23,832 nucleotides of DNA from an uncultured Nitrososphaerota archaeon (GTDB lineage: Archaea > Asgardarchaeota > Njordarchaeia > Njordarchaeales > Panguiarchaeaceae). Below are positions 1 to 19,239 of the stretch, piece after piece. How positions within the stretch are numbered: position 1 is the stretch's first letter; each line of letters opens with the position of its first letter. The DNA is taken from assembly GCA_964636085.1 (NCBI GenBank), contig CAZWPQ010000025.1, forward strand, positions 9,936 through 33,767. The letters are read 5' to 3'. A program made the translations under genes and the position numbers. Under the pieces are notes generated by a model that ran no database searches, had not been told where the DNA came from, and saw only the letters and a list, made by a program, of their open reading frames with translations.

Positions 1-755
1 ATCACAAACCTTTCTCCCCATCTAATCTCCGCATCTTTGGGATCGGGATTTTTGACGAAAATAGCATGCTCCTTCATGTACCTCAAATTGTCAAGCGGAT
101 CAGGCATTTTGTTTCTTCTACCGAAATCTGTGGGACACGTAGAGATTACCTCTATTACCCTAAATCCCCTCATCCTTAAGGCAGTCATAATACTCTTTAC
201 AAGTTGTCTCACATGGTATACCGTCCACCTAGCGACATATATCGCCCCACTTGACGCGGCGAGCCATACAGCATTGAATGGGGGCTCAAGATAATTACCA
301 TAGGGCGTAGTTGTAGTTCTAGTGTATTCGGGAGTTGTTGGGCCGACCTGACCTCCTGTCATCCCATAGTTAAAATTATTGACCAAGATAACCAAAATAT
401 CTATATTTCTCCTAGCAGCATGGATAAAGTGATTTCCACCAATCGCCAGCAAGTCCCCATCTCCAGAAATCACACATACATGAAGATCTGGACGCGCCAA
501 CTTTAGACCCATTGCAAATGGTATAGCTCGACCATGGGTTGTATGGAATCCATCAAATGCCCAATATCCACTAGCTCTCCCCGCACATCCTATGCCCGAT
601 ACAACAACAACTTTCTTTGGATCTATATCTAGCATATCTATGGCTCTTGCAAAAGCATTCATAATTATACCCATACCACAACCTGGACACCAGATATGGG
701 GGAGCCTGTCTCTCCTAACAAATCTATCAATTGGGTGTTGTTCCTCTATACTCAC
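1..755 (-). CDS. korB: 2-oxoacid:ferredoxin oxidoreductase beta subunit (2-oxoglutarate type), 3' end runs out of the window
   Basis: Not in the ORF track because the stop is outside the window. Hand translation from GTG at 755 (RBS GGAGGTGA upstream) gives MSIEEQHPIDRFVRRDRLPHIWCPGCG...SGIGC...HTTHGRAIPFA...GDGD...NNFNYGMTGGQ...EVISTCPT, the TPP-binding beta-subunit motifs. It follows the alpha subunit directly. Confidence 0.92.
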   Translation of the reverse strand, partial: MSIEEQHPIDRFVRRDRLPHIWCPGCGMGIIMNAFARAIDMLDIDPKKVVVVSGIGCAGRASGYWAFDGFHTTHGRAIPFAMGLKLARPDLHVCVISGDGDLLAIGGNHFIHAARRNIDILVILVNNFNYGMTGGQVGPTTPEYTRTTTTPYGNYLEPPFNAVWLAASSGAIYVARWTVYHVRQLVKSIMTALRMRGFRVIEVISTCPTDFGRRNKMPDPLDNLRYMKEHAIFVKNPDPKDAEIRWGERFV

Positions 756-756
756 A

Positions 757-1899
757 TCATTTCACCTCCATTATCTTATCAACTATCTCTTCGGGATATA
801 TCCACCTACCGCCATAATTCCCAACCCAATATACTTCAGTTCTCCCCTTAGAGGCTCTTTCAACCTCCCTAGTTATTTGCCCATCATTAATCTCCGCAAC
901 TATATATGCCTTAATATTCCTCGCATAACTATATACCAATTCGTCTGGGAAAGGCCATATAGTCTTCAATCTCAGCAACCCTACTTTAACTCCCTCCTCC
1001 CTCGCCATATCCACCGCATGCTTTGCGCTACGGGCAGCAGAGCCATAGGATATAACCACTATTTCCGCATCTTTAACCTTGTAGGCTTCATACTCAATAA
1101 TCTCATTTTTCCTACTCCGAATTTTCTCTATCAGTCTCTTAATTAATCTATTGTGGGCATCAGCATTCACGGCGGGATATCCCCGTTCGTCATGTGTAAG
1201 ACCAGTAGTCTGAATTCTATAACCCTCACCAACAGGGGCCATGGGAGGTATTAAATCTCTATCTGGAAGATATGGTAAGTAACTAGCCTTATCTCTAGCG
1301 ACCTTCCTGTTTATAATTATGACATCTCTAGGATCTGGAACGACAACCTTCTCATATAGATGTGATAAACCCTCATCCATAAGCATAATGACTGGAGTCC
1401 TAAATTTCTCCGCCAGATTAAACGCTGTTATGGTCATATTAAAACATTCCTGGACAGTACTTGGCGATATAGCTATTATCTCATGTGGCCCATGGGTTCC
1501 CCATCTAGCCTGCTGGACATCACCCATCCCAATCATCGTTGGGAGACCAGTAGATGGGCCTCCCCTCTGGATATTTGCAATAACGATTGGAACTTCCATC
1601 ATTATTGCTAGGCCTATATTTTCCTGCATTAACGAAAACCCTGGCCCAGATGTGGCAGTCATCGCTTTTAGTCCTCCCCAAGAAGCCCCGATAATAGTCG
1701 CGATGGAGCCTATTTCATCTTCCATTTGTACAAATATCCCGCCCACTTGGGGTAATCTCCAAGATAGTCTTTCTGATACTTCATTGGATGGAGTTATCGG
1801 GTAGCCTGCAAAGAACCTACAACCTGCAAATATGGCGCCCTCCGCTAGAGCATCATTACCGCTCCAGAAATATGCGCCAGGCTTCGCTACTCCATTCAT
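757..1899 (-). CDS. korA: 2-oxoacid:ferredoxin oxidoreductase alpha subunit (2-oxoglutarate type)
   Basis: Motifs GYPITPS, QMEDEIGS, TATSGPGFSLMQE and QRGGPSTGLPT. Start reassigned to ATG 1899 (MNGVAKPG), which overlaps the korD stop (ATGA) and follows a GGAGG RBS. Confidence 0.92.
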   Translation of the reverse strand: MNGVAKPGAYFWSGNDALAEGAIFAGCRFFAGYPITPSNEVSERLSWRLPQVGGIFVQMEDEIGSIATIIGASWGGLKAMTATSGPGFSLMQENIGLAIMMEVPIVIANIQRGGPSTGLPTMIGMGDVQQARWGTHGPHEIIAISPSTVQECFNMTITAFNLAEKFRTPVIMLMDEGLSHLYEKVVVPDPRDVIIINRKVARDKASYLPYLPDRDLIPPMAPVGEGYRIQTTGLTHDERGYPAVNADAHNRLIKRLIEKIRSRKNEIIEYEAYKVKDAEIVVISYGSAARSAKHAVDMAREEGVKVGLLRLKTIWPFPDELVYSYARNIKAYIVAEINDGQITREVERASKGRTEVYWVGNYGGRWIYPEEIVDKIMEVK

Positions 1900-2213
1900 T
1901 CTTCCCCCACCTCCTCCATAGGAACGCTGAAGATTGCAAACTCGGGACATATTAACGAGCAAAAGCTACAGTTTATACATACCCTAAATGGTGGTTCCTC
2001 AACAACTACTGGATAGTGATAACCTTTTACATTGATGTCTTCGGATTGCTTTAACACACCTGATGGACAATTCTCAATACAGAAACCACAGCCTTTGCAT
2101 CGATCCTTTATCACTATTACTTTCCCCCTACGGATCCTAACACCCTCCCTCTTCATCATTTTCAATTTAAATTCCATTTCTCTTTTCTCCACAGGCTTTC
2201 TAAACTGCAACAA
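1896..2213 (-). CDS. korD: 2-oxoacid:ferredoxin oxidoreductase delta subunit (2x[4Fe-4S] ferredoxin-like)
   Basis: CKGCGFCIENCP and CINCSFCSLICPEFAI motifs plus KGYHYP. TTG start with GAGGAGG RBS; coupled to korA. Confidence 0.88.
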   Translation of the reverse strand: MLQFRKPVEKREMEFKLKMMKREGVRIRRGKVIVIKDRCKGCGFCIENCPSGVLKQSEDINVKGYHYPVVVEEPPFRVCINCSFCSLICPEFAIFSVPMEEVGEE

Positions 2214-2296
2214 TTTTTACGCCTCCTCATAATATAAATGCATATACTCCCATATATACATATGAAAATACAAAAATATAAAGATTAATATAAAAA

Positions 2297-4249
2297 TTAT
2301 ACCTTCGCCTCAACGAGCGCACCTCCTATCATACTGAAAATCTGGCCCATCGCGTAATTGGTCAGTGTAATTGCGCCAGTCGGGCATGATGCTACACATG
2401 CACCACACCCCTCACATGCTACTCCAACAACCTCAGCTCCTTCGGGAGTCATTGTAATGGCACTATACGGACACAATGAGACACAAATTCTACATTTCGA
2501 GCAAAGATCCTTTTCCACATACGCCACTATAGGCTCCTTCTCTATCTCTCTCTTTGATAGAATCTCTACTGCTTTGCTAGCAGCTGCACTCGCTTGTGAT
2601 ACAGAATCCTGTATATCTTTTGGGCCCTGTGCAACACCCGCTAGGAAAATACCCTTTATGGGTGACTCGACAGGCCTTAGCTTTGGATGAACCTCCTGTA
2701 GAAAACCATTTTCATCAACAGGTATTCTTAGGACACTCGCGATTTCTTTTGTCCTCGGAACTATACCCGTAGCTAGGACAACCATGTCTACTGGTAGTTT
2801 TATTTGTTCGCCAGTAATTGTATCCGTCGCATAAACAATTAATTTTTCTCCAACCTTAGTTATCTTAGATACCCTACCCCTAATGTATCTGACCTTCGTT
2901 TCTTCCTGAACCCTCATTATAAACTCTTCGTATCTCTTTCCTCCGGATCTTATATCTATATAAAATACATATGCCTCGCCATCAGGAACCAAGTGTCTAT
3001 ATATGAATACATGTTTTGCCGTGTACATGCAACATATCCTTGAGCAATAGGGTAAGTGTTGAAGATCTCTAGACCCCACACATTGAATAAAGGCAATTCG
3101 CTTTGGTATTTTACCGTCACTTGGACGTCTAATCTCCCCTCCCGTGGGGCCAGTTGAGGATATCAACCTCTCGAATTGGAGCGAATCTATCACATCCTCA
3201 TATCTTCCATATCCATATTCCCCAATTTTTTCTTTTGGATATAAGTCGAACCCTGTAGCCACAATTATTGCCCCTACATCTACTTCTATTATTTCTTCTC
3301 TGTCGAATAGATTTATTGCGTTTTGCTCACATACCTCAGCACATTCTGAGCATCTGGCAGTACCTATTCCATAACAATTTTTCTCATCTATCAGATATGA
3401 GGATGGTACTGCTTGCGGGAATGGTATATATATGGCCTTTCTAAGTGCTAGGCCTCTGTTAAATTCCTTATCTATCACTACTTGAGGACAAACTTTTTCG
3501 CATTCTCCACATAGATTACATGCCTCTATATCAACATACCTTGGTCTCTTTCTTATTTTGACCTTAAAGTTTCCGACCGATCCACTAACTTCAATTACCT
3601 CGCTAAGTGTATATAGTTTAATCTTCGGATGCCTCGCCACTTCAGCCATTTTTGGTGTCAATATACACTGGGCACAGTCGAGTGTTGGGAATGTTTCTGC
3701 TAGTTGCGCCATTCTTCCACCTATTGTTGGAGATTTCTCTACTAAGATAGCCTCAAATCCATTATTAGCAACATCAAGAGCTGCTTGAATCCCAGCTATC
3801 CCTCCACCAATAACTAGGCATCTCCTAACAACATTACCTTTGACTTTTTCGAGTGGTTTATTACCAACAACTTTATTGACGACACTCCATATAATGCGTA
3901 TAGCCTTTTCTGTAGCCGCATCCACATCCTCGTGAACCCAACTATTCTGCTCTCTTATATTGGCCATCTCTACTTTGTATGGATTTAGTCCCACGCCGCT
4001 AGAGGCCACCCTGAATGTTTCTAGATGTAGCGACGGAGAACAAGCAGCCACGACAACCGCGGTTAGATTTTTTTCTCTAATAGCTTTTTGAATAAGTTCT
4101 TGTCCTGGGGTCGAGCACATATATTTATAGTCCTCAGCATGAACAACATAAGGATGCTTACCTATGACCTCAACAACCTTCTTTACATCCACGGTGTCCG
4201 CAATGTTTCTTCCGCAGTGACAAACGAAGACCCCGACCCTTTCACCCAT
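2297..4249 (-). CDS. hdrA: Heterodisulfide reductase subunit A (FAD/Fe-S, canonical full-length architecture)
   Basis: N-terminal VCHCG/MCS/AACSP domain, GGGIAG FAD motif, TFPTLDCAQC, inserted 2x[4Fe-4S] domain, QFER, CVGSRD...CSRICCMYTAK, and a C-terminal 2x[4Fe-4S] domain. Confidence 0.95.
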   Translation of the reverse strand: MGERVGVFVCHCGRNIADTVDVKKVVEVIGKHPYVVHAEDYKYMCSTPGQELIQKAIREKNLTAVVVAACSPSLHLETFRVASSGVGLNPYKVEMANIREQNSWVHEDVDAATEKAIRIIWSVVNKVVGNKPLEKVKGNVVRRCLVIGGGIAGIQAALDVANNGFEAILVEKSPTIGGRMAQLAETFPTLDCAQCILTPKMAEVARHPKIKLYTLSEVIEVSGSVGNFKVKIRKRPRYVDIEACNLCGECEKVCPQVVIDKEFNRGLALRKAIYIPFPQAVPSSYLIDEKNCYGIGTARCSECAEVCEQNAINLFDREEIIEVDVGAIIVATGFDLYPKEKIGEYGYGRYEDVIDSLQFERLISSTGPTGGEIRRPSDGKIPKRIAFIQCVGSRDLQHLPYCSRICCMYTAKHVFIYRHLVPDGEAYVFYIDIRSGGKRYEEFIMRVQEETKVRYIRGRVSKITKVGEKLIVYATDTITGEQIKLPVDMVVLATGIVPRTKEIASVLRIPVDENGFLQEVHPKLRPVESPIKGIFLAGVAQGPKDIQDSVSQASAAASKAVEILSKREIEKEPIVAYVEKDLCSKCRICVSLCPYSAITMTPEGAEVVGVACEGCGACVASCPTGAITLTNYAMGQIFSMIGGALVEAKV

Positions 4250-4261
4250 ACCGTATCCCGT

Positions 4262-5908
4262 TTATCTATACTTTATGTCTCCCCTGTAATCTGGTAATAT
4301 TATTGGTGCCTCAAGATCCGTCTTTATTCCTTCCTTCTCAAGCATTTCCTCCCATTTCCCGACATGATCTAGAGTCAATTTTCCGATTTTCACTTTTTCT
4401 ATGTGCTTCGCCGCACGCATTCCCGCCAATCTGCCAAACACTGTTATCTCAAGTAAGGAATTACCCATCAGTCTATTCTTCCCATGTACACCACCGGTTA
4501 CCTCTCCAGCAGCAAATAGATTTGGTATAGGCCTATCTCCACTACCAAGTACCTGACATTGAGTATTTATCCTTATACCTCCATTCTGATAGTGAAGCGT
4601 TGGATAAACAAGTATTGGTTCCTTCCTTATATCAATACCAAACCTCCTGAACTGCCTAAGCATCGCTGGAAGATATCTCTCAATTGTTCCCTCCCCCTTG
4701 ATTATTTCTATCATAGGAGAGTCCAACCATACGCCCCATGTACCTACGGGGGTTCTAACACCCTTCTTTCTCCCTTGACACTCCCTTATTATCGAGGCCG
4801 CCACGATGTCCCTTGGTTCTAATGGGTAGACAAATTGTTTTCCCTCTATATTTACTAATTGGGCACCAAGCCCCCTAACTTTCTCTGTTACTAGCTGACC
4901 AGCAATCTGTGGTGGCCAAGCGGCTCCTGTTGGGTGATATTGAACAGAGTCCAAATCTCGTATTGTTGCCCCAACTCTATATGCCATTACTACTCCATCC
5001 ATTGTTGCTCCATAGTGATTCGTTGTTTGGAAGCCTTGTATATGCAATCTTCCAAAGCCACCTGTAGTTAGTATAGTTGCTTTTGCACGAACCATGAGAT
5101 ATTCCTCTGTCTCTAGATTCATGAGTACTGCTCCAGCAACTTGTCCTCTATCATCCATCAGAAGCTCTACCGCTGGTGAGAATTCAATTATGTTTATGCC
5201 CTTGTTTAACACTTCATCCATAAGTACACGCATTATCTCGAGACCAGTATAGTCCCCCGCAGAGTGCATTCTATATCTCGAAGTTCCACCACCAGAGATC
5301 TCTATCATCTCCCCAGTCTCCTCTTTGTCGAACATAACCCCAAGATCCTCAAGCCACTTAATGATAAATGGAGCCGTGGTAACAAGTATCTTTACCAGTC
5401 TAGGATCATTGGTGTAGTGGCCTCCCCTCATAACATCCAAGAAATGAATTACGGGGCTATCATAGTCCTTATCTGCGGCCTGTATTCCGCCCTGCGCCAT
5501 TTTAGTATTTGCATCTCCAAATCTGAGCTTCGTAGCGATTAGTATTCTGTCTGCAGGCACCCCGCTATAGTGAGCCCACAATGCGGCAGATGCCCCTGCG
5601 CCTCCCCCACCAATTATTAGGATGTCAACATCGTAATCTGGTTCTGAGAGATCAAGATCCCTATATATGTTTCTAAGTCTTGAGTGAGCCTCAAGCAAAT
5701 CGGCGACTTCTAGTGGTGCTAACTCCCCCTTACTCGCCCCTATTCTGATTCTCCTTTTCTGTTCTGGCTTATAGTCAGGATGCCATTTCCTAAGGAGGTT
5801 TTCCTTTTCCTCATCGCCCAAGAGCGGGTATTTTTCCTCTAGACGCTTATCTCTAGTTTCCTCTACAACACGAATAGATTCTCTAAATTCTGGTGGATAT
5901 CCACTCAT
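4262..5908 (-). CDS. Fumarate reductase/succinate dehydrogenase family flavoprotein (soluble, probably non-covalent FAD, TfrA-like)
   Basis: GGGGAG, MAQGGI, QYHPTG, TEKVRG, PRDIVA, HYQNGG and HGKNRLMGNSL give the complete dicarboxylate active-site set. There is no His at the covalent-FAD position. Confidence 0.85.
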   Translation of the reverse strand: MSGYPPEFRESIRVVEETRDKRLEEKYPLLGDEEKENLLRKWHPDYKPEQKRRIRIGASKGELAPLEVADLLEAHSRLRNIYRDLDLSEPDYDVDILIIGGGGAGASAALWAHYSGVPADRILIATKLRFGDANTKMAQGGIQAADKDYDSPVIHFLDVMRGGHYTNDPRLVKILVTTAPFIIKWLEDLGVMFDKEETGEMIEISGGGTSRYRMHSAGDYTGLEIMRVLMDEVLNKGINIIEFSPAVELLMDDRGQVAGAVLMNLETEEYLMVRAKATILTTGGFGRLHIQGFQTTNHYGATMDGVVMAYRVGATIRDLDSVQYHPTGAAWPPQIAGQLVTEKVRGLGAQLVNIEGKQFVYPLEPRDIVAASIIRECQGRKKGVRTPVGTWGVWLDSPMIEIIKGEGTIERYLPAMLRQFRRFGIDIRKEPILVYPTLHYQNGGIRINTQCQVLGSGDRPIPNLFAAGEVTGGVHGKNRLMGNSLLEITVFGRLAGMRAAKHIEKVKIGKLTLDHVGKWEEMLEKEGIKTDLEAPIILPDYRGDIKYR

Positions 5909-6624
5909 TCCTGAATCACCTCCTCTATATCCATACCCTTTATAAGTTTTTCAGCCAAGTCTTTCCACAATTCAGGCCCTCCACTTATAACCTTGTTAAG
6001 CTTCTCTTCATATAGGCCCTGCGCTATTTCTTTTACACGCTTTTCTAAGTGCTTTGCTTTTGGTGCAATATACTTACCATAGAGACGCCTAACAAGTTGG
6101 AATACATAGAAATGCTGTATCTCCGCAGGACATCTGAGAGTACAGGAACCACAGGAAATACAATCGAAGGTTAGCCTAGCTGCCTTGGCTATATCCCCCC
6201 TTAGGATAGCCTGTATTGCATCCATGACCTCCAATTCTTGTGGACATACTTTTGTGCATGTATTACATGATATACATCTCGCTATTTCTGGAAATATAGC
6301 TAAAACAACAGATGCAGCTGGAGACATGTTTTCTAAGTCATACCTTGGTTTTTCCGCTGGAACAAATGGTATTTGTGTTAAATACATGCCCTCTTCTACT
6401 GGTGTTTGACATGCAAGGCCCACATAGAGTCTATAGTCTCCCTGTTTCCTGTATACTGTCGTACAGGCACCACAGAAGCCTCCGCGACATCCGACGCCCC
6501 GAACGAGCTTGTATCCAAGGTATTCTAGTGCCTTTAATATTGTTAGTCCCGCGGGGACCTTATATCTTTTCCCCATAAAATAGATGGTTACAAACCTTTT
6601 GATAGATTCGGGCTCCTTACTCAC
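5905..6624 (-). CDS. Fumarate reductase/SDH-type iron-sulfur subunit ([2Fe-2S] + 2x[4Fe-4S])
   Basis: CRGGFCGAC...LAC [2Fe-2S] motif, plus CISCNTCTKVCP and CISCGSCTLRCP. ATGA overlap with the flavoprotein gene. Confidence 0.85.
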   Translation of the reverse strand: MSKEPESIKRFVTIYFMGKRYKVPAGLTILKALEYLGYKLVRGVGCRGGFCGACTTVYRKQGDYRLYVGLACQTPVEEGMYLTQIPFVPAEKPRYDLENMSPAASVVLAIFPEIARCISCNTCTKVCPQELEVMDAIQAILRGDIAKAARLTFDCISCGSCTLRCPAEIQHFYVFQLVRRLYGKYIAPKAKHLEKRVKEIAQGLYEEKLNKVISGGPELWKDLAEKLIKGMDIEEVIQE

Positions 6625-7498
6625 GATTGACCACCCCCATAAGTTTCTCGATTTTTTCTAACACCTCCTTATTGAGAGAGTCTAGACGCCCAAAAGAAAA
6701 AGCCAACAGCTCCGATACATAAAAAACAGGAAGAACTCTCCCCTTTAATTCTCTAGATTTTTTCATTTGCCCCTCCTCCAAATTAAACTTGCATAACGGG
6801 CATGTAGTAACAAACATATCTGCCCCCATCTTTATGGCAGATTCGGCTATCTCCTTTATTCTATCCCACATAACTTCGGGATCCCTAACAACACCGTAGC
6901 TCCCACAACATTCATTCCTATCTGGGTAATCCACAGGCTCTATACCTATATTCAAGAGTATGTCCTCAATAACTGTTGGATCTTCTGGGTCGTCTATGGC
7001 TACTTCTCGGGGTCTAAGCAATAAACAGCCATAAAAAGCCGCAGCTTTAAGGCCCTTGAGTGGTTTTTTTACTTTTCTTCTTATGTTTTCGTACCCAATA
7101 TAATCCCTTAGTAATTCGAGTAAATGTACCACTTTTATCCTACCCTCATACTCTGGCTCGTCATCTAGATATTTTCTCAATCTTTCAGCACCATCTAGAT
7201 CTGTTTTGTATCTTCTATCTGCTTGTTTTAGAGTGTGATTACACATGGAGCAAACTGTTAGAATTATACTTTCGGCATTATATTTTTTGGCCACCTCTTG
7301 AGCTCTTATAAGGTTTCTTAGTGGAGCTACTGTAAATGCAACCGAATCTGTCGGCAAGTTATATACAACCCCACAACAAGTCCAATTATCGATTTCTATG
7401 AGTTCAATACCGAATTCCTCCAAGATCGCTTTTGTAGCCTTCTCGTATCCGATCGCAGTGGCCTTAACTGTGCAACCGGGATAATATACCAATCTCAT
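6617..7498 (-). CDS. hdrB: Heterodisulfide reductase subunit B (two CCG domains), copy 1
   Basis: YYPGC...WTCCG...CSMC and FYGC...ECCG...CPLC: all ten CCG-domain cysteines are present. Confidence 0.93.
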   Translation of the reverse strand: MRLVYYPGCTVKATAIGYEKATKAILEEFGIELIEIDNWTCCGVVYNLPTDSVAFTVAPLRNLIRAQEVAKKYNAESIILTVCSMCNHTLKQADRRYKTDLDGAERLRKYLDDEPEYEGRIKVVHLLELLRDYIGYENIRRKVKKPLKGLKAAAFYGCLLLRPREVAIDDPEDPTVIEDILLNIGIEPVDYPDRNECCGSYGVVRDPEVMWDRIKEIAESAIKMGADMFVTTCPLCKFNLEEGQMKKSRELKGRVLPVFYVSELLAFSFGRLDSLNKEVLEKIEKLMGVVNRE

Positions 7499-7504
7499 AT
7501 CAAT

Positions 7505-7885
7505 TCACCCCGTATATTTCCTACCAGCTGCCACAAGGGCAATAGGAGGATATTTTTCAAGATTCCTAATCCTTCTCAAATCAATAGCATCCAGTCTTTT
7601 ACGTAGCCTTATTACTCTAAGACCCTCCATTATTTTTGCCACGTCTAGGTTTCTTGGACATCTCACGGAACAAGTAAAACAGGTAGCACAATACCATATC
7701 GATTCCACATCCAGTACCCTCTCATCACCTAGCTGGATTAGATGTATAACCTGATACGGCAAGAGATCCATGTGGCTAGCCATAGGGCACCCCGCGCCAC
7801 ATTTTCCACACAGGTAGCATAGATATACATCCTGTTCCGTCAACTCATAGATTTTTTGCGCTAATCTGCTAGCCATATCCTTCAT
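7505..7885 (-). CDS. hdrC: Heterodisulfide reductase subunit C (short form), copy 1
   Basis: CYLCGKCGAGCP and IWYCATCFTCSVRCP; directly upstream of hdrB. Confidence 0.9.
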   Translation of the reverse strand: MKDMASRLAQKIYELTEQDVYLCYLCGKCGAGCPMASHMDLLPYQVIHLIQLGDERVLDVESIWYCATCFTCSVRCPRNLDVAKIMEGLRVIRLRKRLDAIDLRRIRNLEKYPPIALVAAGRKYTG

Positions 7886-8442
7886 CCCTCTCCTAACAAT
7901 TTCTTTCCATAGTTATAGCCCTCCTCAAATGCCTTAAGGTTAAGATCAAGATACCTTCCCCTTACTCCCTGTATAACACTTTTCTTCATTGTTTCTGGAT
8001 CTATTAGTTTTGATATCGCTGTGAATGCCCCAACCATAACTATGTTCGCTACAATTCTTCTTCCTAAACCATCTGCGATCCTTGTAGCTGGTATCTTGTA
8101 GACCCTGGCTTTCTTTGCTCGGTCATCAAGCCTAACTAGGTCCTCATCAACAATTAACGTTCCTCCGTTCTTCAAGATCCCGATATATGTGTCATAGGCC
8201 TCCTGATACATTATAATCAAGTAATCCGCACTCCTAACCAACGGATAATCTATCTCCCTCTCGGTGTCTATCACAACCCTAGAAGCACATCTGCCGCCAC
8301 GGGCTTCAGGACCATAGCTAGGAAGATACGTTGAGTTGTATCCCTTTAACATGGCTGCATTTCCTATTATGAATCCAGTAAGGAGGATCCCTTGTCCTCC
8401 ATAACCACCGACTATTATCTCGATTCTACCCACATTCCTCAC
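7882..8442 (-). CDS. korC: 2-oxoacid:ferredoxin oxidoreductase gamma subunit
   Basis: GYGGQG, SYGPEARGG and ANIVMVGA motifs; overlaps both mvhA and hdrC by 4 nt. Confidence 0.9.
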   Translation of the reverse strand: MRNVGRIEIIVGGYGGQGILLTGFIIGNAAMLKGYNSTYLPSYGPEARGGRCASRVVIDTEREIDYPLVRSADYLIIMYQEAYDTYIGILKNGGTLIVDEDLVRLDDRAKKARVYKIPATRIADGLGRRIVANIVMVGAFTAISKLIDPETMKKSVIQGVRGRYLDLNLKAFEEGYNYGKKLLGEG

Positions 8443-9887
8443 CTCTTTATTTTCTTCAATAATTTACTAACATTATCATAAATTCCAATAGATACTGTAA
8501 TTGCACCTGGGATATTATGTGTTGAACAGGCTAGACAAGGATCATATGCTCTGAATGCCATCTCTATCATGTCTAATATTGCATCGTCACATTTTCCATC
8601 GATTATAAGTCTCTCCGATACCCTTCTTATGTCCAAATTTATACTAGGATTATTCATTGTTGTCGGTATTATTAGGTTAACCATAGTTGCTATACCCTCC
8701 ATGTTAGACTCATAGTGATGTATGAGTAGTCCTCTAGGTGCCTCTACTGCTGATATACCAACACGAATTATCTCGCCTTCTGTGTTAAGCACATCTCTTG
8801 ATAAGATATCCTCATCTTGAATCAGCTCTAAAATCCTTTCGCTGGCATACACCATTTCGATTACCCTAGCATAGTGATAGGCCATAGTATGATGTGCTGG
8901 TTTGCCAAATAGTTCTACAAACCTTTCATAGAACTCCTGAGCCTTCTCTGTCGCGAATCCATCTGCAACATTTAACCTACCTAGTGGCCCCACTCGATAA
9001 ACTCCACTATCTGGACCATCAATTATTCCTTTCCAGCCAATCCTTTTTAAATAAGGCATCTTTGTGTAACTCCAAGGAACAACAGCTTCCGCAATATAAT
9101 CTAGATACTCTTTTGGTTCAAACTTATATAGCTCCTTGCCATTAGTATCAACAACTCTTATCTTTCCATCATAAAAGTTTACCCTGTTATGGTCATCAAC
9201 AATACCAGCATAGTGGGTTTTAAGGATATACATGTCTCCAAATACTATATCCTTATACTCTTCCTTCTGTATTAGTTCTGAAAACAATTCTACAGACTCC
9301 ACGGAGAATTTATATAGTTCCTTGGCATACTCTTCAATCTCCTTCACTTCTTCTTTGCTTAACGATTTACTTAACCCACCAGGAATAGACGTAACGGGAT
9401 GTATCGCCTTTCCTCCTATGATTTCCTCTATTCTCGTGATCTTTTCTCTCATCCTTAGTACCTTCTTAACAAGCTCAGGATGTCTCTTGTAGATACCTAT
9501 TATGCTCCTTTCTCTTCTATCAGCATGAGGAGATACAATGAAATCTGGTAGCGCTAGAGCATAGTAATGGATAGAGTGACTATCAAGCATATGTGCACAA
9601 TACCCAAGCTCTCTAATTTTCTTCGCAGCGGGTGGCGGTTCTCTCCCGTATAACATATCAGCAGCCTTTGCAGAAGCCATGTGATGAGCCCAAGGACAAA
9701 CACCACATATCCTAGTTACTATCCTAGGGAGCTCCTCCACTGGTCTACCTATGCAAAAACGCTCAAACCCTCTAAACTCTATTATCTGGAAGTACGCATT
9801 CTTGACTTTCCCCTTCTCGTCCAAGAATATCTTTATCTCTGCTTCTCCCTCCAATCTGGTTGCAGGGGATATCGTGATAACACTCAT
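8439..9887 (-). CDS. mvhA: [NiFe] hydrogenase large subunit, group 3c (F420-non-reducing, Hdr-linked)
   Basis: L1 RICGVCPWAHH, EAPRGLLIHHY, and L2 DPCLACSTH followed by a C-terminal extension for proteolytic maturation; mvhDGA synteny. Confidence 0.93.
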   Translation of the reverse strand: MSVITISPATRLEGEAEIKIFLDEKGKVKNAYFQIIEFRGFERFCIGRPVEELPRIVTRICGVCPWAHHMASAKAADMLYGREPPPAAKKIRELGYCAHMLDSHSIHYYALALPDFIVSPHADRRERSIIGIYKRHPELVKKVLRMREKITRIEEIIGGKAIHPVTSIPGGLSKSLSKEEVKEIEEYAKELYKFSVESVELFSELIQKEEYKDIVFGDMYILKTHYAGIVDDHNRVNFYDGKIRVVDTNGKELYKFEPKEYLDYIAEAVVPWSYTKMPYLKRIGWKGIIDGPDSGVYRVGPLGRLNVADGFATEKAQEFYERFVELFGKPAHHTMAYHYARVIEMVYASERILELIQDEDILSRDVLNTEGEIIRVGISAVEAPRGLLIHHYESNMEGIATMVNLIIPTTMNNPSINLDIRRVSERLIIDGKCDDAILDMIEMAFRAYDPCLACSTHNIPGAITVSIGIYDNVSKLLKKIKR

Positions 9888-10876
9888 TTTAACCTCCTCC
9901 TCGCTATTCTATGAAGCCTACTCAACCCAAGAGTAAAACGATAAAATAGGCCCACAGGATCACTAATTTTTTCAACTCTCTCCACCAATTCTTCATCGCT
10001 AAGTTTTGGCTCATTAGCTATTTCTATCAATGCTGCTAGGCTACTTACCATTTTGGCTCCAGGATCTATAATCTCTGGAGCGGGGCCCATACATCCCCTG
10101 CATGGCATATTGGCCTTAATACACTTTAATCCACAACCACCCCTTGTTATTGGTCCTAGACATATTATTCCTTGGGCTAAAAAACACTTATTAGGATCTA
10201 TATCCTTAACCTCATGAATTCTCCTAAAGCTACTTATCTCTATCTTCTCAGGTTTTTCTCTTTCACACTCATCACAAAGAGTTTTTAATGACGCAACAAC
10301 CGTCCCTTTTTGAATAGGTTTTCCATGTTCGAAATGTCCCAATAATAAACCTATGGCCTCGACTATAGACTCCGTTGGTGGTGGACACCCAGGTATATAA
10401 ATGTCTACCTCAATTAAATCGTCAACCTTAAGGTTCTCATCCAGTAATTTTGGTGCAGATACTCCATCATCACTTTTTCCACGTCCAGGAATAGTCCCCT
10501 CCTTATTAATTGTTGAAGGAGATTCAAAGTAGGCAATTTTAAATAACTCATCCACTCTATATAGATCCGCTAGGTCAGGTATACCGCCAAAACAGGCACA
10601 CGCACCAAATGCAATCTTAATTTTTGATTTCCTAGCAATTTTCTCTATAATATCTCTCTGCTTCTCGGTCCTGATGCTTCCCTGAAAAATCGCTATATCT
10701 ATGGATTCCAGTTTCTCTATATCTTCCTCCTTGAAATCAGTAGCTATGGGCCAGTACACAATCTCTATAGAGCCCAGCACATCAAGGAGTTTTTCATGCA
10801 GATCTATGATAGACATATCACAGCCGCCGCATACCTCTCCTGGAACTATAGCCATTTTATACATTTTGCCACCCAT
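9884..10876 (-). CDS. mvhG: [NiFe] hydrogenase small subunit, group 3c
   Basis: CGGC, FGACACFGG, IPGCPP, LCDEC and CFLAQGIICLGPITRGGC...CRGCMGP. Confidence 0.93.
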   Translation of the reverse strand: MGGKMYKMAIVPGEVCGGCDMSIIDLHEKLLDVLGSIEIVYWPIATDFKEEDIEKLESIDIAIFQGSIRTEKQRDIIEKIARKSKIKIAFGACACFGGIPDLADLYRVDELFKIAYFESPSTINKEGTIPGRGKSDDGVSAPKLLDENLKVDDLIEVDIYIPGCPPPTESIVEAIGLLLGHFEHGKPIQKGTVVASLKTLCDECEREKPEKIEISSFRRIHEVKDIDPNKCFLAQGIICLGPITRGGCGLKCIKANMPCRGCMGPAPEIIDPGAKMVSSLAALIEIANEPKLSDEELVERVEKISDPVGLFYRFTLGLSRLHRIARRRLK

Positions 10877-10877
10877 A

Positions 10878-11303
10878 CTACTCCCTCACTATGGGGCCCA
10901 ATTCTTTTAGCTTCTTCACAAAATCCTTGACTACCTCAACAAATTTCTTGGCCTCTGTAGCGGAAATCCACTCAAGCCTCAGCCTTTCGGGCTCTATACC
11001 CATCTGCGCAAGGAGCTTCTTCATCAATGCGACACGTTTAAGTGCCTTAAAATTACCCCTAAGGAAATGACAATCAGAGGGTGTATGACACCCCCCAATT
11101 AAGACTCCATCAGCCCCCGATTCAAAAGCCTTTACTACATACTGCATATCTACAAATCCAGAACACGGGACAGTAATAGATATTATATTGGGCGGGTACT
11201 TCATCCTACTAACGCCAGCAAGATCTGCACCCGCCGAAGCACAATACTGACACAAGAATGCGAATATTTTTGGCTCCCAGTTTCGTATATGATTTTCCTT
11301 CAT
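10878..11303 (-). CDS. mvhD: Hydrogenase/Hdr adaptor [2Fe-2S] subunit (canonical)
   Basis: FLCQYCASAGADLAG, VPCSG, GGCHTPSDCHF..GN and ERLRLEWISATE. Confidence 0.93.
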   Translation of the reverse strand: MKENHIRNWEPKIFAFLCQYCASAGADLAGVSRMKYPPNIISITVPCSGFVDMQYVVKAFESGADGVLIGGCHTPSDCHFLRGNFKALKRVALMKKLLAQMGIEPERLRLEWISATEAKKFVEVVKDFVKKLKELGPIVRE

Positions 11304-11395
11304 ATAGATTACCCTAAGTAAAAATCACTATAGTAATCCCTATATAATAACCATAAACAGATATATAAAAGTCTGCATATACATAATTGAAAATT

Positions 11396-11413
11396 TATAT
11401 ACAAATGTATATA
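11396..11413. promoter_or_regulatory. Perfect inverted repeat TATATACA-AA-TGTATATA upstream of the mvhD operon (candidate operator/promoter element)
   Basis: 8-bp arms with a 2-nt spacer, read directly in the AT-rich intergenic region 11304-11504. Confidence 0.4.
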
Positions 11414-11459
11414 GATATTTATAGTGGATAAAGTATGGAAAAACAAACCCGTAAATAAT

Positions 11460-11503
11460 AAAAAGAGATCATGAATAATATTGTAAAAAATACAAATCAT
11501 GAT
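11460..11503 (-). terminator. Candidate terminator after tusA (bulged hairpin followed by T-run)
   Basis: The minus strand reads ATCATGA-T-TTGTA-TTTTT-TACAA-TATTAT-TCATGAT-CTC-TTTTT immediately after the tusA stop. Confidence 0.4.
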
Positions 11504-11504
11504 G

Positions 11505-11771
11505 CTACTTTTTGCGTCTCATGAAGATTCTCCAGTATCCTGGTTCCTCTATGACACCCAGGAATTCGTGTCCTACCTTCTTTGCCCATTTTGGAAGATC
11601 ACGAGCTGTTCCAGGATCAGAACTCAGTACCTCTAGAACCCCATCTATAGGGATCTCTGTGATTGCTCTTTTTGCCGCTAGAAGTGGGCCTGGACAGGAT
11701 ACTCCTCTAGCATCCACAACTTTATCTGGTTTTATTTTTTCTAGCTCTTCCTTTGGGAGCCCCTCACTCAT
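11505..11771 (-). CDS. tusA: TusA/SirA family sulfurtransferase (sulfur carrier)
   Basis: VDARGVSCPGPLL (CPxP motif) and LEVLSSDPGTARDLPKW. Start set at ATG 11771 behind an AGGTGA RBS. Confidence 0.92.
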   Translation of the reverse strand: MSEGLPKEELEKIKPDKVVDARGVSCPGPLLAAKRAITEIPIDGVLEVLSSDPGTARDLPKWAKKVGHEFLGVIEEPGYWRIFMRRKK

Positions 11772-11805
11772 ATTATTCACCTATCAAAAACTATGGCTAT
11801 ATGGT

Positions 11806-12216
11806 TTATATAAAGAATGCTATTTCGGCTTCTTTTGCAGTGCTTACTATCTCAGCTGCACCCACGAAATCATCTGCTAGGTATATGTCTTCTAGTTTAG
11901 CATTCCATGCTTTTGCGGCGGCAGAACAGACATGTATTCTGACTGTACCCAACTCTTTAGCTTCTTTTAGCATTTCATACCATGGCTTTAGTCCTGCATT
12001 TTTGAGGCCCTTCTCTAGCTCCTCTGCTAATTCTTTATGCTCGCTGAGCTCCTTATTTTTCTCTAGATTCTTTTTGAGAAATGCATATACTCCCCATAGC
12101 ATTAGGTATATATCAACTTCCATATCCATAGCTACTGCTCCACTTGTTAATACGGCGGCACCTAACAATCTGTCAGGAGTACCAGAAAATATTACCAATA
12201 CCATTTTCTCTGGCAT
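11806..12216 (-). CDS. DsrE/DsrF/DrsH-like sulfur relay protein
   Basis: FSGTPDRL..AAVL.SGAVAMDMEVDIYLMLWG, a single conserved Cys in IHVCS, and C-terminal VGAAE...FFI; adjacent to tusA. Confidence 0.85.
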   Translation of the reverse strand: MPEKMVLVIFSGTPDRLLGAAVLTSGAVAMDMEVDIYLMLWGVYAFLKKNLEKNKELSEHKELAEELEKGLKNAGLKPWYEMLKEAKELGTVRIHVCSAAAKAWNAKLEDIYLADDFVGAAEIVSTAKEAEIAFFI

Positions 12217-12281
12217 TTTTTATCCCTATACGCTTCTATTTATACAAATATTATTATAAATATATAGAATCATATATACAA

Positions 12282-12689
12282 TTATAGCTCGATCCTCATT
12301 GCACCGGTATCCTTGTCCTTGACGAGCCTTATCCCATAATTTTCAAGTATTGTGGAGCCCAGTATTATGTCTATATGGCTAGCAATCATTTCTAGATATT
12401 CGGGAGGTAGAACGGATTTAAGATTTTTATCTATGAGCCAGACATACATGTTCTTTAATGTTTTTCCTTTTATCTCTATGTCTAATATTGCATACTCACT
12501 TAAATGTGCTCTTTGTTCTAAGCCTAGCAAGGCTTCGACTTTTGCTCCTGTTTCCCATGCCTTACCGAATAACTCCTCGAATTTATCCTTTGACATGAAT
12601 GCAAGATGAAAGTATTGGTAATCCAGAAGAGCTCTACATCTATGTGATTTGTCGCCTAATCTGATGATTACTTCTTGTATGGCTGCCAT
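12282..12689 (-). CDS. Retropepsin-like (clan AA aspartic protease fold) protein with degenerate catalytic motif
   Basis: RALLDYQ in place of ALxDTG, a DIEIKG strand and C-terminal DIILGSTILENYGI, matching the ILG..L motif; about 135 aa. Confidence 0.55.
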   Translation of the reverse strand: MAAIQEVIIRLGDKSHRCRALLDYQYFHLAFMSKDKFEELFGKAWETGAKVEALLGLEQRAHLSEYAILDIEIKGKTLKNMYVWLIDKNLKSVLPPEYLEMIASHIDIILGSTILENYGIRLVKDKDTGAMRIEL

Positions 12690-12712
12690 TCTTATTTCCT
12701 ATATCTACTAAA

Positions 12713-13582
12713 TCACTTACCTAGAATCTCATTTATCATTTTTAGTCTGTCATTCTCCAAATATTCTTCCTTATCCATTGCATAGGCAATTAGCTCTGGC
12801 TCATAGAATACTGGAAGTACTTTACCCAGCTTGTCCTTTCTCCTTTTCTGCCCCTCCTCTAAATTAAATGCACATAGTGGACATGTAGTAACAAAAGCAT
12901 TTGCCCCTCTCTCAATGGATGTTTTTGCTATGACATATATCCTGTCCCAAACAGCGTCGGGGTCCTTCGTCACCAAGTAACCACCACAACACTGGTTCTT
13001 GTAGGGGTAATCGATTGCCTCGGCACCAAGACTCCGGGTTATTTCCTCCATTATTGTTGGTTCCTCCGGATTGTCTATTCCTATTCCTTCTGGTCTAAGG
13101 AGATAGCATCCATAGAAAGGTGCTATCTTAAGACCCTTGAGTTGCCTAACTATCCTCCTCTTCAAATTTCGGAGACTAACAATGTCTCTTATGACCTCCA
13201 TAAAGTGGACAACTTTTATCTCGGCTTCATAATATGGTTCATCTTCTATAAAGTAGAAGACTCTATCGCGGACCTCATCGCTTTCCTTGTATCTTTCGTT
13301 CGCATATTTTAGAGTATTAAAACACATCGAGCATACCGTCAACAGATACTCGTTATCTATCCCAAGTTCTTTCTTCTCCTTTTGTGCGTATATTAGATTT
13401 CTTATCGGTGCGACGAGATGGTAATATGTATCCTTCGATAATCCTGGATATACTCCACAGCAAACCCAGTTCTTCAACTCTATTACCTCTATACCAAACT
13501 CTCTTAGAACTCCAATTGCTGCCTTTTCATATGCCCTAGCAGTTGTTTTTACAGTGCATCCTGGATAGTATAGCATCCGCAT
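12713..13582 (-). CDS. hdrB: Heterodisulfide reductase subunit B (two CCG domains), copy 2
   Basis: YYPGC...WVCCG...CSMC and FYGC...QCCGG...CPLC. Confidence 0.93.
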   Translation of the reverse strand: MRMLYYPGCTVKTTARAYEKAAIGVLREFGIEVIELKNWVCCGVYPGLSKDTYYHLVAPIRNLIYAQKEKKELGIDNEYLLTVCSMCFNTLKYANERYKESDEVRDRVFYFIEDEPYYEAEIKVVHFMEVIRDIVSLRNLKRRIVRQLKGLKIAPFYGCYLLRPEGIGIDNPEEPTIMEEITRSLGAEAIDYPYKNQCCGGYLVTKDPDAVWDRIYVIAKTSIERGANAFVTTCPLCAFNLEEGQKRRKDKLGKVLPVFYEPELIAYAMDKEEYLENDRLKMINEILGK

Positions 13583-13587
13583 CTAGA

Positions 13588-13959
13588 TCACCCCGTATAT
13601 TTCCTTCCAGCACCTACCAAAGCTATTGTAGGTAGAGCCTCAAGCTCCCTCACGCCCCTAAGCTCAATCGCATCCTTCCTCTTTCTTAGATTAATAAGTC
13701 TTAGGGCCTCAATTATGGCGGTGATGTTTATCTCCCTCGGGCATCTCTGGGTACAGGCTAAACAAGAAACACAATACCATATAGCATTTGTATCAACGAC
13801 CGATTCATCGCCAATACGTACCATATGTATTATCTGATGGGGCTTCACATCCATCAGGTCCGAAAATGGACAGACGGCCGAACACCGGCCGCATGCTATG
13901 CATAATTCCGCGTCTTCCCTACATATATCATATACTTTTTTCGTAAAATCCTTCTTCAT
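13588..13959 (-). CDS. hdrC: Heterodisulfide reductase subunit C (short form), copy 2
   Basis: CIACGRCSAVCP and IWYCVSCLACTQRCP. Start set at ATG 13959 (MKKDF) behind a GGTGA RBS. Confidence 0.9.
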   Translation of the reverse strand: MKKDFTKKVYDICREDAELCIACGRCSAVCPFSDLMDVKPHQIIHMVRIGDESVVDTNAIWYCVSCLACTQRCPREINITAIIEALRLINLRKRKDAIELRGVRELEALPTIALVGAGRKYTG

Positions 13960-13970
13960 AATATCACCAA

Positions 13971-14261
13971 TTAAAGTTCCTCTCCAAACCATTCAAAAAT
14001 GTATCGGTCCTCATCATCCTTTCCTGCTATCTTGACGACACCATGTCTGAGTAAAGTTGCTATGTACCAAGATAGTTCATGCATATCCATTCCAACCAGC
14101 TTGGATATCTCAGGAGCGCTTTTTGGGCCATTCTCTAGGGCCTTCTTTATCTTGTCTTTTATATCAATGAACGACCTCGCATTTTTAGCTAGCTCTATTG
14201 GGGGGGCAATATATTCAATTTTTTCCTTTAGGAGATCCACAGTTAGTTTTTTGGTAGCCAA
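13971..14261 (-). CDS. Small winged helix-turn-helix domain protein inside the Hdr operon
   Basis: KIKKALENGPKSAPEISKLVGMDMHELSWYIATLLRHGVV fits a wHTH pattern. TTG start at 14261 behind GGAGGTGA. Confidence 0.7.
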   Translation of the reverse strand: MATKKLTVDLLKEKIEYIAPPIELAKNARSFIDIKDKIKKALENGPKSAPEISKLVGMDMHELSWYIATLLRHGVVKIAGKDDEDRYIFEWFGEEL

Positions 14262-14266
14262 AGCAC

Positions 14267-16240: not shown

Positions 16241-17550
16241 CTACGCCCACCCCTCAGATTCATAACATATCTTGCAGCAGACATAGCTGCTGAATTAGCA
16301 TCAACAATAGAGTCAGGAATATCCTTGGGTCCAGAGGCCGTACCCGCTACAAAGACCCCGGGTATGCTTGTCTGATTTGGAGCAGAATTTGGATCAATGA
16401 CCTTGATCCATCCATATTCATCAAGATCCAAGTTAGCATTTTTGAATACCTTAGCAATTTCATTTTCTGGTCGAAAACCAACCGCCAATACGACTAAGTC
16501 AAATTTCTCATTCTTCATTTTTCCTTCTGAATAGTCGAAATATTTTATATTTATACTGCCATCAGAGTTTTCTTCAAGCAAGTCCACCTGCCCCTTAACA
16601 AATTCTATACCCATTAGTCTTGATTGATTGTAGAATTCTTCAAATCCTTTCCCAAATGCCCTTATATCGATATAGAATATGGTCGCCTCAGCCAATGGTA
16701 GGGCCCCGAGCACTAGTTGAGCTTGTTTGATAGAGTACATACAGCAGACTTGAGAACATATGGGATAATTCAGCTTCAAATCTCTCGATCCAGCACATAA
16801 AACAAATGCTATTCTTTCTGGCTCCTTAAAATCGAGAGGCCTAGCAACACCCCCAAGAGGGCTCGTGGGGGAAAGCAACCTATCCATTTGGATTGATGTT
16901 ATTACATTCTTGAATTTACCATATCTAAACTCTGGTTTTTCTTTCGGGTCAAATAGTCTATATCCAGTAGCTATGATTACCGCTTTTACTCTTATATTGA
17001 ATTTCATTTGCTGGTCTAGAAAATTAATAGCATCAGCGGGACATACATTCTCACACAAGCCACACATAAGGCAATTATCAATATCTATGACCGCTTTCTT
17101 CGGGATCGCCACGTCAAAGGCTATGTATACGGCCTTTCTTCCGCGCAAGTCAAAATTAAATTCATCTGGAATAACAATTGGACAGATTTTTTCACACCAT
17201 GTACATGCAGTACACTTACTAAAATCAACATATGTTGGTCTTCTGAGTATTATAGCATTGAAGTCTCCCTTTACTCGTCTGACTACCTCCAATACATCAG
17301 CATATACTAGGAGGTCTATATTTGGGTGATGTTGGACAGCGGCCATTTTTGGGGTCACTATACATGATGCACAGTCTAGGGTTGGAAATACCTTACTGAG
17401 CAAAGCCATTTTGCCGCCGATACTTGGAGATTTCTCCACCAAAAGAACCTTGAATCCCATATCTCCTAAGGTAAGAGAAGCCTCCATTCCTGCTATTCCA
17501 CCACCTATAACAAGGACATCATACTCTGATTTTGGTTCATTTATCAACAT
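16237..17550 (-). CDS. hdrA: HdrA-family flavoprotein, short partner (no N-terminal domain, no C-terminal ferredoxin)
   Basis: GGGIAG, FPTLDCASC, intact inserted 2x[4Fe-4S] domain and CAGSRD...CSQVCCMYSIK; ends after GPKDIPDS. Confidence 0.88.
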   Translation of the reverse strand: MLINEPKSEYDVLVIGGGIAGMEASLTLGDMGFKVLLVEKSPSIGGKMALLSKVFPTLDCASCIVTPKMAAVQHHPNIDLLVYADVLEVVRRVKGDFNAIILRRPTYVDFSKCTACTWCEKICPIVIPDEFNFDLRGRKAVYIAFDVAIPKKAVIDIDNCLMCGLCENVCPADAINFLDQQMKFNIRVKAVIIATGYRLFDPKEKPEFRYGKFKNVITSIQMDRLLSPTSPLGGVARPLDFKEPERIAFVLCAGSRDLKLNYPICSQVCCMYSIKQAQLVLGALPLAEATIFYIDIRAFGKGFEEFYNQSRLMGIEFVKGQVDLLEENSDGSINIKYFDYSEGKMKNEKFDLVVLAVGFRPENEIAKVFKNANLDLDEYGWIKVIDPNSAPNQTSIPGVFVAGTASGPKDIPDSIVDANSAAMSAARYVMNLRGGRR

Positions 17551-17552
17551 AT

Positions 17553-19020: not shown

Positions 19021-19129
19021 TGAAAGCTATTTCTTAGAAACCCCCCACCCCCTGGCCATTATCATAGATATAATTTCTAATACTACCTAGCTATGCAGAC
19101 TCCTAGCCGTCCAGATCGATAAAAATTTC

Positions 19130-19234
19130 CTAGTATATGGCTATATATCCAGCATCTAAGAGCCTACTTTTTTCTGGCAGCCATTTCCATACATAATATG
19201 CACAGTTGGTAATGAAAATTAAAGGAAATTCCAT
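19130..19234 (-). pseudogene. Possible remnant of a class I SAM-dependent methyltransferase
   Basis: 34-codon ORF MEFPLIFITNCAYYVWKWLPEKSRLLDAGYIAIY*. It resembles the start of motif I (LP.....LDAG) but lacks the glycine loop. Confidence 0.25.
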
Positions 19235-19239
19235 TATTA

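Follow-up and report, generated by a model that had tools for sequence, protein, structure and literature searches.

A conserved soluble gene cluster of Mvh hydrogenase, HdrABC, fumarate reductase and 2-oxoacid:ferredoxin oxidoreductase in an uncultured archaeon: a candidate H2-driven variant of the proposed Hdr-linked fumarate reductases

Soluble fumarate reductases coupled to heterodisulfide reductase (Hdr) subunits, with NADH as the electron donor via Flx proteins, were proposed in 2019-2020, including some whose genes are interleaved with korABCD. Pseudoclostridium thermosuccinogenes, which makes succinate, expresses and regulates a "succinate operon" in which fumarase is encoded together with seven Flx-Hdr genes and a novel fumarate reductase (PMC7282089), and a preprint known here through its citation in that paper (Koendjbiharie and van Kranenburg 2019, via PMC7282089) proposed that this operon couples succinate formation to ferredoxin reduction in a bifurcating manner. 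In tubeworm symbionts and Thioflavicoccus mobilis, the reductive tricarboxylic acid (rTCA) cycle cluster korABCD-tfrAB-flxABCD-hdrABC led to the proposal of one complex feeding both Kor and fumarate reductase (PMC6315080; PMC11636981). Here we analyse a stretch of 23,832 nucleotides (the window, i.e., positions 9,936-33,767 of the forward strand of contig CAZWPQ010000025.1, assembly GCA_964636085.1) from an uncultured Nitrososphaerota archaeon (Panguiarchaeaceae in GTDB), in which genes for an Mvh-type [NiFe] hydrogenase, HdrABC, a fumarate reductase-like pair (FrdBA) and a four-subunit 2-oxoacid:ferredoxin oxidoreductase (Kor) form one cluster. This cluster is real, conserved and soluble, and it is an H2-driven variant of the proposed Hdr-linked fumarate reductases, interleaved with Kor. 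The original prediction, made from the same DNA, had named no characterised complex of this composition and overstated the novelty, given the Flx-type proposals above. The literature searched, with subscription journals outside its coverage, yielded no paper that describes an H2/Mvh-type cluster or characterises a bifurcating fumarate reductase, and within that literature only the H2 (Mvh) version seems undescribed.

All genes of the cluster lie on the minus strand (coordinates hereafter are window positions), and Pfam and NCBIfam name them MvhD, MvhG, MvhA, KorC, HdrC, HdrB, FrdB-like, FrdA-like, HdrA, KorD, KorA and KorB, in agreement with the original prediction. They are transcribed in the order mvhD-mvhG-mvhA-korC-hdrC-hdrB-frdB-frdA-hdrA, followed by korDAB. 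The tight spacing that had been claimed was reproduced as well, with distances of −8 to +12 nucleotides from mvhD to hdrA and a gap of 83 nucleotides between hdrA and korD. No membrane anchor gene is encoded in the cluster, as had been stated, and no convincing transmembrane stretch was found in any of its products, the highest 19-residue Kyte-Doolittle mean (1.67) occurring in KorC, a member of a soluble family.

The same six subunits that constitute MvhAGD-HdrABC of hydrogenotrophic methanogens, the ferredoxin oxidoreductase acting on H2 and the coenzyme M-coenzyme B heterodisulfide, CoM-S-S-CoB (PDB 5ODC, 8RVU), are encoded here with their ligands intact. MvhA (8439-9887, 482 residues) is a group 3c-type [NiFe] large subunit that matches the MvhA chain of 5ODC (5ODC_F) with 408 bits over residues 4-481. 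Both pairs of its NiFe cysteine ligands are preserved (RICGVC and DPCLAC), which rules out a dead hydrogenase. The small subunit MvhG (9884-10876, 330 residues) belongs to Pfam Oxidored_q6 and scores 216.8 bits on NCBIfam VhuG, below the cut-off of 450. MvhD (10878-11303, 141 residues), the [2Fe-2S] adaptor between hydrogenase and HdrA, matches Pfam FlpD with 169.5 bits and MvhD of 5ODC with 152.5 bits over its full length. HdrA (2297-4249, 650 residues) is a full-length bifurcating-type flavoprotein, whose residues 4-644 align to residues 5-649 of 5ODC HdrA with 671.5 bits and with the cysteine motifs in register, so that the N-terminal, inserted and C-terminal Fe-S domains are all present. 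HdrC (7505-7885, 126 residues; 60-63 bits on NCBIfam HdrC models) carries two [4Fe-4S] motifs whose eight cysteines are conserved at 95-100% among 42-43 homologues, and HdrB (6617-7498, 293 residues; 125-127 bits against solved HdrB chains) has ten cysteines, invariant relative to 42 homologues, which form two complete CCG motifs for non-cubane [4Fe-4S] clusters. The locus differs from the methanogen system in its short HdrC, in the insertion of frdBA between hdrB and hdrA, and in the position of korC between mvhA and hdrC. The heterodisulfide itself is not expected as a substrate, because a check of the genome for the methanogen cofactor route, proposed along with the original prediction, found neither MCR alpha (mcrA) nor ComA; the genome (2.41 Mb) is 83% complete, a limit that every genome-level absence given below carries.

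Compared with the "succinate operon", the cluster shares the combination of HdrABC and MvhD (FlxD) with an anchor-less FrdBA unit, a homologous-looking arrangement for which the P. thermosuccinogenes genes were compared by description only. It differs in that FlxABC, the NADH donor module, is replaced by MvhAG with H2 as the donor, that fumarase is not part of the operon, and that kor genes are present. With the tubeworm-symbiont cluster it shares kor and fumarate reductase genes interleaved with hdr, whereas that cluster is found in Gammaproteobacteria, uses Flx (NADH), and serves a full rTCA cycle with ATP citrate lyase. A further precedent is the Type E succinate:quinone reductase/MFR (SdhABE(F)), in which a CCG "anchor" protein partners SdhB/SdhA, i.e., CCG clusters act as an electron conduit; in contrast to those enzymes, the window system has no quinone or membrane link and possesses HdrA and a hydrogenase. 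The match of HdrB to the SdhE model (133.9 bits) falls well below its cut-off of 500.

A gene-neighbourhood search across archaea and bacteria, suggested together with the original prediction as a check of the gene order, found the synteny to be strongly conserved. When the window proteins were mapped on 80 related loci, frdB lay beside frdA in 71 of 72 loci, and hdrB immediately upstream of frdB in 41 of 67. Within 10 kb upstream, counted in 49 loci, hdrA was present in 42, mvhD in 44, kor genes in 19 and mvhA in 15. Homologues 55-80% identical to the window FrdA occur across many archaeal and bacterial phyla, including Njordarchaeota-labelled metagenome-assembled genomes (the nearest), Thermoplasmata, Bathyarchaeia, Culexarchaeia, Methanomethylicia, Heimdall/Thor archaea and Desulfurococcaceae on the archaeal side, and Clostridium, Fusobacterium, Oscillospiraceae, Desulfobacterales and others on the bacterial side. 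Since the linkage recurs in so many phyla, it is far beyond chance. Thermoplasmata carry korDABC-hdrA-mvhDGA-hdrC-hdrB-frdB-frdA in one direction, and two Mvh-type Desulfurococcaceae loci (L028, L061), in which class I fumarase genes adjoin the cluster, read fumAB-hdrA-mvhDGA-hdrCB-frdBA. Among genomes closer to the window, the flavoprotein was found in all 4 searched from the same genus, in 7 of 9 from the same order and in 7 of 27 more distant ones from the same phylum. A same-genus genome with a 95% identical FrdA (G002) keeps the window order over the fetched stretch from mvhA to korB, and two same-genus genomes likewise have korC wedged between mvhA and hdrC.

In place of MvhAG, loci of Clostridia and Fusobacterium and many of the Heimdall loci have three genes that lie between mvhD and the gene following it. 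According to their Pfam domains, they encode a 4Fe-4S dicluster protein, a Fer4_22 protein and an FAD/NAD-binding protein with a DHODB-type Fe-S domain, and we read them, from these domains, as putative FlxC, FlxB and FlxA, i.e., an NADH donor module. The clostridial FrdA proteins are 55-59% identical to the window FrdA, and class I fumarase genes flank the cluster in the Clostridium loci. The donor label (Mvh or Flx) changes at least 5-8 times on a FastTree phylogeny of FrdA, and in one Asgard locus (L051) both donor modules adjoin the Hdr-Frd core. The alternation of Mvh and Flx, together with these changes on the tree, suggests that the electron-input module has been swapped repeatedly on a conserved HdrA/HdrCB/FrdBA core. 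In two other Asgard loci (L057, L059), mvhDGA is flanked by two hdrA genes.

FrdA (4262-5908, 548 residues), the only full FAD_binding_2 match in the genome, has a core that matches this Pfam family with 260 bits. Its top NCBIfam match is TfrA (NF004900), the flavoprotein of the methanogen thiol:fumarate reductase, with 350.7 bits against a cut-off of 718 and coverage of model positions 6-417 of 546. An AlphaFold2 model (mean predicted local distance difference test score, pLDDT, of 85.6) is closest in fold to E. coli FrdA and Shewanella flavocytochrome c3 (Fcc3). The fumarate site comprises the complete set of Fcc3 and FrdA residues, and the catalytic residues H325, T341, E342, R345, R366, H439 and R479 are invariant in alignments of 41-70 homologues. 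About 90 further residues at the N-terminus of the protein form a conserved extension, which is a signature of the family and always N-terminal (369 cluster representatives at E ≤ 0.001). Fumarate is the likely substrate, as judged from the sequence, because the catalytic residues are invariant, the fold is nearest to FrdA/Fcc3, fumarase genes adjoin the clusters and P. thermosuccinogenes makes succinate. L-aspartate oxidase or another FAD_binding_2 enzyme was considered and ruled out by the invariably adjacent Fe-S partner, the fumarase neighbours and the FrdA/Fcc3-nearest fold.

The histidine that binds flavin adenine dinucleotide (FAD) covalently in SdhA/FrdA is replaced by N134, an invariant asparagine among the FrdA homologues, and the FAD is thus predicted to be non-covalently bound in a putatively fumarate-reducing active site. 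Variants of FrdA/SdhA without covalent FAD retain fumarate reduction, whereas their succinate oxidation is crippled. The replacement therefore favours fumarate reduction over succinate oxidation, and the physiological direction is probably the reductive one. Pointing the same way, FrdA is the genome's sole full FAD_binding_2 enzyme, and sucC, fumarase and an Mdh-like gene were detected there but neither glutamate dehydrogenase nor malic enzyme. FrdA also has no C-terminal helical domain, and none of the classical features of complex II/quinol:fumarate reductase (the anchor, the covalent-FAD histidine, the C-terminal helical domain and the [3Fe-4S] motif) is present in the window system.

The Fe-S subunit FrdB (5905-6624, 239 residues) contains twelve cysteines that are invariant in 70 sequences (the window protein and 69 homologues), i.e., a [2Fe-2S] motif and two CxxCxxCxxxC motifs, the second of which occupies the classical [3Fe-4S] position and is expected to bind a second [4Fe-4S] cluster. 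This composition, combined with CCG domains in a soluble enzyme, is shared with the methanogen thiol:fumarate reductase TfrAB. TfrB is one fused chain, whereas FrdB, HdrC and HdrB are separate here, and the window FrdA lacks the C-terminal third of the TfrA model, has the 90-residue N-terminal extension and is not expected to meet CoM/CoB thiols. On the TfrB model, FrdB aligns to the N-terminal part and HdrB to the C-terminal part, and the hdrB stop overlaps the frdB start by 8 nucleotides. The pair thus looks, at the sequence level, like a split TfrB. Longer, fused FrdB homologues were not found at E ≤ 1e-10 with a word-index search, which is prone to miss distant TfrB.

Modelling of the Hdr-Frd interface, also suggested with the original prediction, yielded a score of 0.55 for HdrC+HdrB+FrdB versus 0.00 for the best control and supports the contact weakly. 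Of 80 solved complexes, 58 attain the mark applied, as do 2 of 110 mismatches, and scores of 0.60 or below were given by only 7 of those 80 solved complexes and by both mismatches. The runs share at least 85% of their contacts, the partner pLDDT is at least 74, and replacing HdrB lowered the score to 0.00. The matches of the two halves of the TfrB model, the gene overlap and this weakly positive prediction together argue for direct contact between HdrB and FrdB, which would wire the two proteins to each other.

In the mechanism that we propose, MvhAGD, HdrA, HdrC, HdrB, FrdB and FrdA would form one soluble assembly. MvhAG would oxidise H2 and pass electrons via MvhD to the HdrA FAD, at which the pair would be split. 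The downhill electron would travel through the [4Fe-4S] clusters of HdrC, the non-cubane clusters of HdrB and the three clusters of FrdB to the non-covalent FAD of FrdA, which would reduce fumarate to succinate, and the uphill electron would reduce ferredoxin (Fd), for an overall reaction of 2 H2 + fumarate + Fd(ox) → succinate + Fd(red) + 2 H+. This reaction would release energy under standard conditions (about −70 kJ/mol, calculated with −414, +33 (fumarate) and about −500 mV). KorABCD would then spend the reduced ferredoxin, one per succinate, on the carboxylation of succinyl-CoA to 2-oxoglutarate; with Mdh, fumarase and SucCD, this would give a self-balanced reductive branch from oxaloacetate to 2-oxoglutarate. 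We regard this full mechanism, i.e., H2-driven flavin-based bifurcation to fumarate and to a ferredoxin that serves Kor, as about evenly poised between right and wrong. The original prediction had already named fumarate as the high-potential sink; the synteny, the intact fumarate site and the split-TfrB arrangement bear this out, whereas bifurcation and physical assembly stay conjectural and one related genome detaches frdBA.

Several observations weigh against the mechanism. The complex prediction is a weak pass, and no biochemical evidence for any member of the family, whether of Flx or Mvh type, was found in the literature searched. KorA, KorC and KorD score below the cut-offs of the NCBIfam models specific for 2-oxoglutarate, KorB was scored as a fragment, three further 2-oxoacid:ferredoxin oxidoreductase alpha genes occur in the genome, and the genome is incomplete to the extent given above. 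In a second same-genus genome, G001 (L101, G001:C23:13500-33400), korDAB-mvhDGA-korC-hdrC-hdrB-hdrA runs uninterrupted without frdBA, which lies 6.5 kb outside this operon on the opposite strand. The operon is thus complete without frdBA, and Mvh-HdrABC-Kor may use another acceptor. HdrB keeps both full CCG motifs, the disulfide-reducing site in methanogens, so that a thiol/disulfide intermediate is conceivable, and genes for TusA and DsrE lie directly upstream of the cluster.

One alternative is a scheme of two enzymes linked by a recycled thiol/disulfide, which we consider unlikely. Here MvhAGD-HdrABC would bifurcate to ferredoxin and to some carrier in disulfide or persulfide form, either a small molecule or bound to protein, and FrdBA on an HdrB-type CCG site would reoxidise the thiols while reducing fumarate. 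Methanogen Tfr operates likewise (Heim et al. 1998, as cited in PMC8163825), and the retained heterodisulfide-type site of HdrB, the detachment of frdBA in G001 and the presence of TusA and DsrE genes immediately upstream both here and in an order-level relative (L002) would suit the scheme. However, ComA and mcrA were not found, most loci have a single hdrCB pair that would have to fill both roles, and direct contact would explain the hdrB/frdB overlap and the TfrB fusion just as well. TusA and DsrE are linked to only 1 of the 80 related loci, which rules them out as a general partner of the system. In L002, dsrE-tusA stands in front of a set of the type found as a second Hdr set in the window (described below), which in turn lies directly upstream of frdB-frdA; in the order-level relatives L001 and L002, frdBA follows an hdrCB pair of that second type. 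FrdBA thus nearly always adjoins an HdrCB pair, the partner HdrA system varies, and FrdBA is detachable.

This detachability bears on another alternative, in which the genes are merely co-regulated: Mvh-HdrABC would serve an unrelated acceptor or simply wire H2 to ferredoxin or Kor, and FrdBA would be a separate soluble fumarate reductase with a different donor. The arrangement in G001, AT-rich spacers suggestive of more than one promoter and the weak complex prediction agree with such a view, but FrdBA has no donor module of its own and stands beside hdrCB, hdrA and mvhD in most loci over distant phyla even where the donor modules are swapped. We judge it very improbable. In G001, an open reading frame of 1712 residues lies between the operon and frdBA.

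The proposed bifurcation might also run backwards in vivo. A fermenter would oxidise succinate at low H2, with Fd(red) from the oxidation of 2-oxoglutarate by Kor and the electrons of succinate confurcated at HdrA to H2. Mvh-Hdr reactions are reversible in principle, the 1:1 stoichiometry of Kor and Frd is equally valid in this direction, and models of related uncultured archaea mostly depict peptide fermenters, with succinate oxidation to H2 suggested for Culexarchaeia (PMC9723716). Against this, the reverse reaction would cost about +70 kJ/mol under standard conditions and so require very low H2, the covalent-FAD histidine normally required for succinate oxidation is the invariant asparagine, and the 83%-complete genome yielded no glutamate dehydrogenase (Gdh) or malic enzyme that could feed or drain the route. 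We take the reverse direction to be rather improbable.

The genome contains sucC, a class I fumarase, one Ldh/Mdh-family (Mdh-like) gene, three [NiFe] large subunits and four 2-oxoacid:ferredoxin oxidoreductase alpha genes. The fumarase is split on two contig ends, with the N-terminal part of FumA at C23:3-326 and the C-terminal part of FumA plus FumB at C12:1-1046, so that contigs C12 and C23 probably adjoin. No match to the citrate synthase/lyase family (Citrate_synt) was found, nor was CdhC. The original prediction had placed the system in a branch of the reverse TCA cycle; sucC, fumarase and the Mdh-like gene support this branch, but with no citrate-cleaving or citrate synthase family gene found, a full cycle does not fit. 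The gene content fits a reductive branch from oxaloacetate to 2-oxoglutarate, as in methanogens with Tfr.

All four Kor subunits are present, with korC apart from korDAB. KorC (7882-8442, 186 residues) is the gamma subunit of a four-subunit 2-oxoacid:ferredoxin oxidoreductase (Pfam POR, 127 bits), and KorD (1896-2213, 105 residues as called) is the 2x[4Fe-4S] delta subunit (NCBIfam OGOR_delta, 59.1 bits, below the cut-off of 125). The alpha subunit KorA (757-1962, 401 residues as called) scores 403.8 bits on the 2-oxoglutarate synthase alpha model (cut-off 579) and 552.7 bits on the generic PRK08659, above the cut-off of 411. The TPP-binding beta subunit KorB (3-755) is cut by the window edge, its gene ending just past it in the contig, and its first 251 residues score 255.7 bits on NCBIfam PRK09628 as a partial protein. 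The frd and sucC context favours 2-oxoglutarate as the presumed Kor substrate.

Genome papers on Asgard archaea, Culexarchaeia and related archaea describe Mvh-HdrABC with an unknown disulfide and treat fumarate reductase apart (PMC9723716; PMC8163825). If the proposed mechanism is true, a fumarate branch wired to HdrB would answer the question of what Mvh-HdrABC reduces where there is no heterodisulfide, fumarate would join the short list of bifurcation acceptors, and the supply of low-potential ferredoxin from H2 for reductive carboxylation in quinone-free anaerobes would be explained. More tentatively, and less likely than not, many non-methanogenic archaea (Asgard, Thermoplasmata, Bathyarchaeia, TACK) and bacteria could use fumarate, and not some disulfide, as the physiological high-potential acceptor of their Mvh/Flx-HdrABC, the non-cubane clusters of HdrB acting purely as a wire to FrdB, without thiol chemistry; in combination with Kor, this would make a stoichiometrically self-balanced, H2-powered CO2-fixing step. 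The hypothesis lends itself to direct testing, since cultured Clostridia possess relatives of the Flx type.

The 201-nucleotide AT-rich spacer before mvhD (11304-11504, − strand) contains several TATA-like boxes, looks like an archaeal promoter region and is the probable promoter of the mvhD...hdrA unit. The 83-nucleotide spacer before korD (2214-2296, − strand), with its TATA-like runs, is of the same kind and may hold an internal promoter, so that up to three transcription units are possible. A hydrophobic open reading frame of 63 residues (11309-11500, − strand) inside the longer spacer matches no family and is unlikely to be a gene. The apparent 67-nucleotide overlap of korD and korA probably reflects an early TTG start called for korA, and the true start of korD is perhaps its first ATG.

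A second Hdr set, which the original prediction did not cover, lies directly upstream on the same strand (11505-17969, − strand). It reads MvhD-like, a 437-residue HdrA, a 657-residue HdrA, a 101-residue unknown, HdrC, HdrB, a 135-residue unknown, DsrE-like and TusA; the 437-residue HdrA has no terminal Fe-S domains, and the HdrC/HdrB pair is 50% identical to the first pair. Between this Hdr cluster and the next operon, a region of low GC content (18185-20439, 0.34-0.35) carries DUF433 and DUF5615 genes and a PIN-domain gene, which look like small genes of toxin-antitoxin type. The next operon (20492-23831, − strand) encodes an Mrp/NUBPL-type P-loop ATPase, two MinD/CbiA-like ATPases with an inserted 2x[4Fe-4S] and a NifX/NifB-type "Nitro_FeMo-Co" protein; lying near the Fe-S-rich cluster, it may be a set for carrying or maturing metalloclusters. 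Just past the low end of the window (L081, contig C25:1-9935), there are more CCG-domain redox genes. A CCG protein accompanies a GlcD-like FAD oxidase, and a second CCG protein, LutA-like, accompanies a LUD/4Fe-4S protein that resembles LutB; these genes make up a lactate or glycolate-type dehydrogenase set.

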